This document shows positions 6,275 through 6,484 of a stretch of 8,928 nt of DNA, piece by piece. The stretch lies in the IMG/VR virus record IMGVR_UViG_2657245131_000016. One strand, given 5' to 3'. The notes under the pieces were generated by a model that saw only the letters and a program-made list of their open reading frames with translations, did no database searches and was not told the origin of the DNA. The first letter of the stretch is position 1; the number at the start of each line of letters is the position of its first letter. This stretch comes from a virus. Lineage: Duplodnaviria; Heunggongvirae; Uroviricota; Caudoviricetes. Position numbers and translations under genes: made by a program.

Positions 6275-6361
6275 CCGGATGCCGCGCCAGCGGCATGTAG
6301 GGGCAGCTCACAAAACGGAAAAAATTGTACGCTAAGCCTCGCCAGGTGAACTGAATTCATT

Positions 6362-6385
6362 CCGATATGGGAATTCCCATATCGG
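6362..6385. repeat. perfect 24-bp palindrome CCGATATGGGAATTCCCATATCGG in the AcfC-hok intergenic region
   Basis: Exact reverse-complement symmetry about the central AATT. Function unknown: it could be a protein binding site, part of the hok mRNA 5' structure, or a small palindromic element. Confidence 0.5.
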
Positions 6386-6484
6386 GCGAAAACGGTTTGC
6401 TGTAACGGCAGAGTTAAGTAGGATTGCTGCGGGTGCTTGAGGCTATCTGCCTCGGGCATGAACACCAACGGCAGATAGATAAAA

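Follow-up and report, generated by a model that had tools for sequence, protein, structure and literature searches.

One described system with which the element reported here can be compared is that of BstA, an abortive-infection protein that is neutralised by aba, a short DNA element located inside the bstA gene itself (Owen et al., 2021; PMC8585504). The aba element acts as DNA, it does so in trans from multicopy replicons, and it is specific to each BstA variant (PMC8585504). In phage BTP1, aba comprises 63 bp at the start of bstA and has terminal CCCGCC direct repeats (PMC8585504).

The element considered here lies next to a locus of the hok/sok type, in the nin region of a lambdoid prophage. 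Several cis elements of hok/sok loci, namely tac, ucb/dcb, fbi and the sok promoter, are said to have been described by Gerdes and colleagues. The modular evolution of lambdoid nin regions, the remnants left at mosaic boundaries and the so-called 'moron' junctions have reportedly been treated in papers by Hendrix, Juhala and Clark.

The window, i.e., the whole stretch of 8,928 nt that was analysed, belongs to a lambdoid prophage of the O157/O145 type and represents its early-right or nin region. Its genes are arranged in the order repressor, cro, ydaT, an O-like gene, P, DUF1627, paa, hok, two small genes and DUF968, and they are followed by RusA and Q in the matching record NZ_CP031350.1. This record, which is 99.9% identical to the window, was the source of the annotation. 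It was deposited as a 187-kb plasmid; the matching stretch is that of a typical lambdoid prophage (dicB, cI/cro, O/P, Q, terminase), and there may be an assembly or labelling issue. The features around the paa-hok interval are as follows.

5484–6242, plus strand: paa (AcfC-family adhesin), the cargo gene (list of open reading frames; annotation of NZ_CP031350.1)
6249–6272, plus strand: terminator-like hairpin followed by a T-run, after paa (terminator scan; fold)
approximately 6337–6354, plus strand: what is left of the 3' end of a 34-aa hydrophobic ORF, found upstream of hok in related prophages (alignment; upstream sequences of classes A and B, see below)
6352–6392, minus strand: probable fossil of a KilA-N (BstA-like) gene (nucleotide identity, family HMM, alignment, translation)
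6362–6385, no strand: perfect 24-bp palindrome CCGATATGGGAATTCCCATATCGG, identical to the consensus dyad inside KilA-N genes
6396–6424, plus strand: putative hok promoter, with -35 TTTGCT/TTGCTG at 6396–6402 and -10 TAGGAT at 6419–6424 (sequence reading; 5' end of the Rfam model at 6431)
6431–6580, plus strand: hok mRNA 5' leader and sok antisense region (Rfam RF01794, 103.9 bits, E 2.4e-23)
6578–6733, plus strand: hok toxin coding sequence, annotated hokD, 51 aa (translation; annotation)
6802–6829, plus strand: intrinsic-terminator-like site, 3' end of the hok transcript (terminator scan)

Three further observations can be made in the window. A second hairpin, ATGCCGCGCCAGCGGCAT, is found at 6279–6297, directly after the paa terminator, and has no T-run. 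From an ATG at 6521, an ORF of 70 aa can be read in the frame of hok (6521–6733), as an N-terminally extended version of it. Lastly, the 5' part of an isrC-type Hfq-binding sRNA (RF01387, 59.7 bits) is present at 8870–8928, where it is cut by the end of the window.

The palindrome and the hok locus

The original prediction was of a perfect palindrome of 24 bp without spacer, within 6340–6400, between the terminator of the cargo gene and the hok leader. Both the symmetry and the location were confirmed. A single exact copy of the 24-mer is present in the window, and when drawn as a hairpin it has two arms of 10 nt around an AATT centre. No other perfect palindrome of the window is as long, the runner-up having 16 bp (GTTCCGGTACCGGAAC, 7582–7597, just inside the start of the DUF968 gene). 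A palindrome of 24 bp was obtained in one of 2000 mononucleotide shuffles of the window, and its analytic expectation is 5e-4. When folded as single-stranded DNA, the 24-mer pairs over 10 bp and leaves AATT as its loop; the folding energy is -10.5 to -11 kcal/mol, with a z score of about -3.3 to -3.5.

A stable stem of 10 bp with a 4-nt loop might denote a function in RNA. The hairpin could terminate read-through transcripts from paa or stabilise their 3' ends or, as had been suggested, act as a processing or structure element at the 5' end of the hok transcript, and N-antiterminated transcripts from pR would cross the palindrome. However, there is no T-run on either strand, the flanks being GCGAAAAC on one and AATGAATT on the other, the site was not called by the terminator scan, and paa has a terminator of its own. 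The palindrome also ends well before the RF01794 model, lies upstream of the putative hok promoter, and was matched by none of the Rfam 15 covariance models run over the window at gathering thresholds; no match was obtained either in an intact KilA-N gene with E values up to 5. In addition, A.C mismatches between the arms are not rarer than G.U in the intact genes, unlike what would be seen in a selected sense-strand RNA helix. A role as an RNA element is thus extremely improbable.

If the hok mRNA begins near position 6431, its promoter may correspond to 6396–6424, and the palindrome then falls at -69 to -46. This promoter was missed by a strict consensus promoter scan, and its assignment is putative. 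A perfect dyad centred near -57.5 from the presumed +1, directly upstream of the -35 element and of a UP-like A-tract, might regulate the hok promoter, as an operator or from an upstream site, another role that had been proposed for it. We know of no E. coli regulator whose site is recognised in the dyad.

The distribution of the palindrome among hok loci argues against such a role. A 151-nt query spanning the region had matches in 4091 of the 5426 complete E. coli genomes searched, and it was covered over its whole length in no more than 577 of them. Homology mostly begins at positions corresponding to 6383–6411, just past the palindrome, and in about 3,200 genomes it starts only downstream. 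The hok part is present in 4091 genomes, as against 877 for a 43-nt segment that includes the palindrome. The sequences upstream of hok were classified from an IMG/VR scan with a conserved 21-mer of the hok promoter/leader, the classes being those found among the matches listed. Class A loci, to which the window belongs, have paa upstream, and class B loci have the 34-aa hydrophobic ORF. In class C, the upstream gene encodes an ORF6N protein, and 20 extra bases separate the palindrome from the promoter. In classes D, E and others, promoter and leader are the same but the palindrome is missing, and the sequence in common starts at TAAAAACGG (among the matches listed).

Since the palindrome is missing from most hok loci, varies in its distance from the promoter and falls outside the transcript, it appears to be dispensable for hok. 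Its flanks, moreover, correspond to KilA-N coding sequence. An operator function is therefore highly improbable, and on these comparisons the palindrome would play no part in hok/sok control, neither the operator nor the hok-transcript reading being supported.

Two observations concern the genes upstream of hok in related prophages. Very small hydrophobic ORFs occur immediately upstream of hok at several loci (L002 2903–3007, L004 2911–3015, and loci of classes D and E); one of them encodes 34 aa, MSDDISLAMEGALAVIAVVGVYCLVVFLMDRLGN, another encodes MTWPEAFTTVGIAMAVALVVYSICRWG, and they have no Pfam match. The window retains only the last 18 or so bases of the 34-aa ORF. In class C (L003 2446–2985, 3001–3024), the last codons of the ORF6N gene (..MEL*) run antisense to the KilA-N fossil, which suggests that the 3' end of a newer gene was built on the remnant of an older one.

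The palindrome had also been proposed to be a small palindromic insertion that marks the junction where cargo was acquired. This was borne out in part. When prophage hok loci with a common promoter and leader are compared, the upstream sequence switches class (paa, 34-aa ORF, ORF6N gene, or a sequence without palindrome) near the palindrome, in keeping with a mosaic junction there. On the other hand, the junction with paa is not at the palindrome but some 25–30 bp to its left, near 6332–6337, and the palindrome is not a small insertion but the remnant of a KilA-N gene, for which the evidence is given below.

The probable KilA-N remnant and its source family

Read on the minus strand, positions 6392–6352 correspond to TTTTCGCCCGATATGGGAATTCCCATATCGGAATGAATTCA, which is identical at 36 of 41 positions to nt 165–206 of an intact KilA-N gene of E. 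coli 95NR1, the product of which is WP_000200358.1, and at 32 of 33 positions to another member of the family (L108). The class C version is identical to the KilA-N gene at 43 of 49 positions. Translated in the frame of the gene, the fossil reads FSPDMGIPISE*IQF, as compared with LSRDMGIPISELIQ or LSRDMGIPISELIQSF in intact genes. A family HMM applied to the window matched at its positions 51–74 only, on the minus strand only (E 0.004), and it detected no further KilA-N homology within 450 nt on either side. The homology thus extends past the palindrome in one frame and one orientation, as in a fragment of a KilA-N (Pfam PF04383) gene, and some 13 codons are left in the window, stop included, in place of an intact ORF. 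The intact gene of 95NR1 belongs to the nin region of a lambdoid prophage, where it is a divergent neighbour of hok, and its relative place and orientation are those of the fossil.

The minus-strand homology, together with the position of the intact gene beside hok, identifies the palindrome as part of a gene fossil. On sequence grounds, we consider it probable that the palindrome is the core of a fossil of about 41 bp, derived from a KilA-N/BstA-like gene and carrying a DNA-level cis element, most likely a putative protein-binding site, with no role for hok. The palindrome measures 24 bp in the fossil and 22 bp in the KilA-N genes of E. coli, with the same 22-bp core. On the hok side, the flank beginning with TAAAAACGG belongs to the hok module. 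On the far side, about 10 bases of KilA-N sequence are followed by approximately the last 18 bases of the class B 34-aa ORF and then, leftward from about 6332–6337, by paa-associated sequence. The hok promoter region of 95NR1 differs from that of the window upstream of about -15, so that the exact ancestor cannot be reconstructed.

Two other origins were considered and rejected. A gene remnant on the plus strand was suggested by the reading SDMGIPISGENGLL, which resembles a Calothrix KilA-N protein (..PISGKNGLIQ). The bases that code for GKNGL, TAAAAACGGTTTG, belong to the hok module and are present in palindrome-free loci; the true orientation is that of the minus strand. An autonomous mobile palindrome was first suspected from matches in very diverse phyla; most of these fell inside KilA-N genes.

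The ancestor would have been a KilA-N gene with a BstA-like C-terminal half, situated beside hok, divergent from it, in the nin region. All but about 41 bp of this gene may then have been lost, one flank being replaced by the paa cargo and the tail of the small ORF, and the other by the hok promoter module. The surviving piece would correspond to the internal 10+4+10 dyad of the family, which codes for (S/A)DMGIPIS in intact genes. A single ancestral truncation, followed by additional nibbling, is enough to account for classes A, B and C, which counts against a function of the orphan copy.

In the proteins of the source family, Pfam recognises a canonical KilA-N domain (E 1e-21 to 1e-26). The C-terminal domain is matched by the PADLOC profile of BstA, PDLC02356, at profile positions 148–272 (E 1e-16 to 3e-20) and can thus be assigned to the BstA C-terminal domain. 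By BLASTP, this C-terminal domain aligned with BstA of Salmonella phage BTP1 over 142 aa, with 32% identity (E 3e-16). The intact-gene loci (L425 5291–6741 and L426 5244–6750) show the two arrangements of the gene, i.e., divergent beside hok in 95NR1 and, in phage PhiR5_2, directly downstream of cI, as is bstA in BTP1. The gene itself is present in 139 E. coli genomes. The dyad was also found in KilA-N genes with unrelated C-termini, including those of the T5orf172 type, so that its link is with the KilA-N domain and not with the C-terminal domain of BstA. Among solved structures, there was only a weak match to the APSES domain of Mbp1 (E 0.3), in which the counterpart of SRDMGIP is an insertion that follows the recognition helix; the match is too weak for use. 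At two loci, L224 and L230, two family-type dyads are found 313–760 nt apart, and they may represent tandem KilA-N paralogues.

Constraint on the dyad and its gene-less copies

The original prediction had called for a search of the 24-mer across genomes, and it proved to be repeated. It is present in 17 contigs of a set of species-representative genomes, from at least eight phyla, and in 52 IMG/VR contigs, as compared with an estimated chance expectation of about 0.002 for one 24-mer in 596 Gb. The 17 contigs come from Cyanobacteria, Chloroflexota, Spirochaetota, Bacteroidota, Alpha- and Betaproteobacteria, Saccharibacteria, Xenorhabdus and others. In about 12 of the 17 contigs, the 24-mer lies inside genes for proteins of about 260 aa, where it is read xCC GAT ATG GGA ATT CCC ATA TCG Gxx, i.e., (S/A/T)DMGIPIS(E/D). 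It was also observed in frame inside a 2380-aa phage-like protein of Azospirillum and in the C-terminal tail of a RecT-like protein (L015/L070 3680–3703; L059 1938–1961), both of which continue with SE(Q/D)(D/N)Q(Q/R)VA.

For the analysis of constraint, relatives were gathered by means of degenerate protein patterns, and not by the palindrome. Codons were compared in 44 non-redundant genes with less than 85% protein identity, from many phyla. At 109 other conserved degenerate columns, the pairwise identity of synonymous codons was about 0.15–0.6, which is the random level, while at six consecutive codons of the dyad it was 0.67–1.0. In particular, Asp is encoded by GAT in 34 of 36 cases, Gly by GGA or GGG in all 40, the first Ile by ATT in 37 of 44, Pro by CCC in 38 of 43 and by CCG in the other 5, the second Ile by ATA in 38 of 38, and Ser by TCG in 28 of 30.

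The two arms of the dyad change together. Among 68 distinct segments of 44 nt, 91% of the cells of arm pairs were Watson-Crick or wobble. Compensatory changes, affecting both sides, were found for 8 of the 10 arm pairs, with 59 double-change cells versus 11.8 in shuffles (none of 500 shuffles reached the observed value), and controls in which partners were slid by 1–3 columns had far lower covariation scores. The variants found in the family include GATATCGGAATTCCGATATC, GGTCTATGGGAATTCCCATAGACC and GGTCCATGGGAATTCCCATGGACC, as well as CCGTTATGGGGATTCCCATAACGG, GATGCGGGAATTCCCGCATC and GATACCGGAATTCCGGTATC. Compensation extends to synonymous sites: Pro CCC becomes CCG where Met ATG is replaced by Ile ATC, and the choice among TCG, TCA, TCT and TCC for Ser follows the third base of the codon before Asp. 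With six codons frozen amid saturated synonymous sites and arms that change together, the dyad is evidently kept, as judged from these comparisons, by selection on the DNA itself and not on the protein.

The mismatches between the arms comprised 7 of the G.T and 16 of the A.C type, so that wobble is not favoured, and no covariation was detected for the central 4 nt (p 0.38). These two results indicate that what is constrained would be a 10+4+10 dyad, as DNA or in either of its strands. The idea that the central 4 nt are paired was discarded, since they show no association, and so was a sense-strand RNA hairpin, given the counts of G.U and A.C (7 vs 16). A duplex site bound by a dimer and a hairpin or cruciform would both fit the mismatch and covariation data, which do not separate them. 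A search for additional half-sites or copies near KilA-N genes yielded 7 where 6.3 were expected, none beyond chance, and the layout of a classic autoregulator with a promoter-operator is therefore absent.

The dyad is a candidate sequence-specific DNA site for a dimeric protein. The most economical binder would be the product of the surrounding KilA-N gene, which might thereby recognise itself or regulate its own expression. In the window, where the surrounding gene is missing, the dyad may be inert or might be bound in trans. Protein binding, the identity of the binder and activity at the present day are points that we infer, and a present-day function of the orphan copy in the window is considered somewhat unlikely.

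Copies of the dyad that, like that of the window, have no gene around them were found repeatedly. A scan with a 14-nt core gave, among the matches listed, about 15 distinct contexts inside KilA-N genes and about 14 with family-type arms but no gene around. These orphan dyads have HMM matches of only 10–26 residues, and no other KilA-N homology was found within 450 nt on either side. No common genomic context was detected for the orphan copies in other phages, which are unrelated and in which the contexts vary. All copies sit in the nin regions of prophages or in KilA-N genes, with no REP-like repetition. In E. coli, the 43-nt fossil occurs at 2238 places in its 877 genomes, and in 133 of the records that it matches, an intact KilA-N gene is the only match. 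Genomes of EHEC strains have 3–5 copies each.

The symmetry of orphan copies at mosaic boundaries might have arisen without selection. Template switching at quasi-palindromes is an established route to the perfecting of inverted repeats, and the dyad, as the most conserved stretch that divergent phages have in common, could be a crossover point between them that owes its symmetry to this process. Mosaic breakpoints do fall within a few bases of the dyad on both sides, in classes A/B and C, and orphans occupy many different contexts. Nevertheless, template switching maintains complementarity and not sequence, and yet the same 20-mer dominates across phyla, including the rare Ile codon ATA in every case. 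Furthermore, homologous exchange inside the dyad alone cannot strip the gene from both of its sides. A recombination linker perfected by mutation is thus quite improbable.

Alternatively, the orphan dyads might have been retained as decoys, that is, as aba-like sites selected to titrate or silence the KilA-N/BstA-like Abi proteins of resident prophages, so that the lambdoid phage can replicate. The precedent is that BstA is neutralised by a short cognate DNA element of its own gene, which acts as DNA and in trans (PMC8585504). The KilA-N/BstA-like genes of E. coli share their 22-bp core with the orphan, and the copy of the window is more palindromic than theirs. At least 12 independent gene-less copies exist in unrelated phages, with about 16–26 codons kept around the dyad. 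Some orphans are perfect palindromes over 30 bp (L264 and L301), others in E. coli bear the compensated change A6G/T19C (L343 and L401), and the fossil reaches six copies in a single E. coli genome. Several findings point the other way. The mapped aba of BTP1 has another sequence and another place, at the 5' end of the gene, with CCCGCC direct repeats and no dyad, and the dyad is also found in KilA-N genes that lack the BstA C-terminal domain. Some of the E. coli fossil copies are damaged, by a deletion of 1 nt in an arm or by the loss of outer pairs, which argues against a strict present-day requirement. The orphan is not clearly more conserved than the hok promoter beside it, its copy number can be accounted for by hitch-hiking with the hok module, and gene and orphan appear to occur together in only about six genomes. 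We therefore regard a retained decoy as a tentative and somewhat unlikely explanation. The broader proposal, that the dyad is the recognition or self-immunity site of a cross-phylum KilA-N clade, written in the codons of its own DNA-binding domain, and that the orphans serve as portable anti-defence decoys against KilA-N/BstA-like abortive infection, would be speculative and unlikely in its entirety.

Comparison with known systems

As a feature of the window, the palindrome is ordinary in kind, since mosaic junctions commonly retain debris of genes that were lost. The dyad that is present throughout the family inside KilA-N genes appears to be undescribed, a search of full-text literature having returned nothing relevant on its sequence or variants, or on KilA-N in connection with a palindrome, a hairpin or a binding site. 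Reading the palindrome as a fossil clarifies how the paa-hok junction of O157-type prophages was built. The dyad is, in addition, a concrete candidate for what canonical KilA-N domains recognise, and it may show how BstA-like prophage defences tell self from non-self. Two questions of the authors of the BstA study are concerned, namely, what is sensed by BstA and by what mechanism aba acts. Orphan copies, if functional, would constitute a DNA-only counter-defence in hundreds of genomes of pathogenic E. coli.

Among extragenic elements, the palindrome resembles intrinsic terminators and REP sequences in being able to form a stem-loop downstream of a gene, but it lacks a T-run and a REP consensus and is matched by no Rfam family. 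Like the elements of hok/sok loci, it is associated with a complete locus of this type, which it adjoins and with which it travels in many prophages of E. coli. Unlike these elements (RF01794), it is found outside the transcript and the model, is absent from most loci, is variably spaced, and is homologous to a protein-coding gene on the other strand. It resembles the moron junctions in that a short leftover of a lost gene is found where the cargo (paa, a small ORF, or an ORF6N gene) varies from phage to phage. In contrast with ordinary junction debris, the leftover is a perfect palindrome, and it is the one segment of the parent gene that is under nucleotide constraint across phyla.

The bstA gene of BTP1 was examined for the dyad and contains none, and the element of the fossil is therefore not aba; identity with the published element was rejected on account of both sequence and position, and the architecture of aba is not that of the dyad. 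The two differ in that aba is located at the 5' end of its gene, whereas the dyad, whose function is putative, lies in the middle of the KilA-N domain and is also found in KilA-N genes with other C-termini. They are alike in being short DNA elements within the coding region of a prophage gene whose product has an N-terminal DNA-binding domain of the KilA-N type. The source family of the fossil also shares the C-terminal domain of BstA, and its gene in PhiR5_2 is just downstream of cI, as in BTP1. The parallel between the dyad and aba is thus that of a gene for a DNA-binding-domain protein that carries a strongly constrained DNA site within itself.
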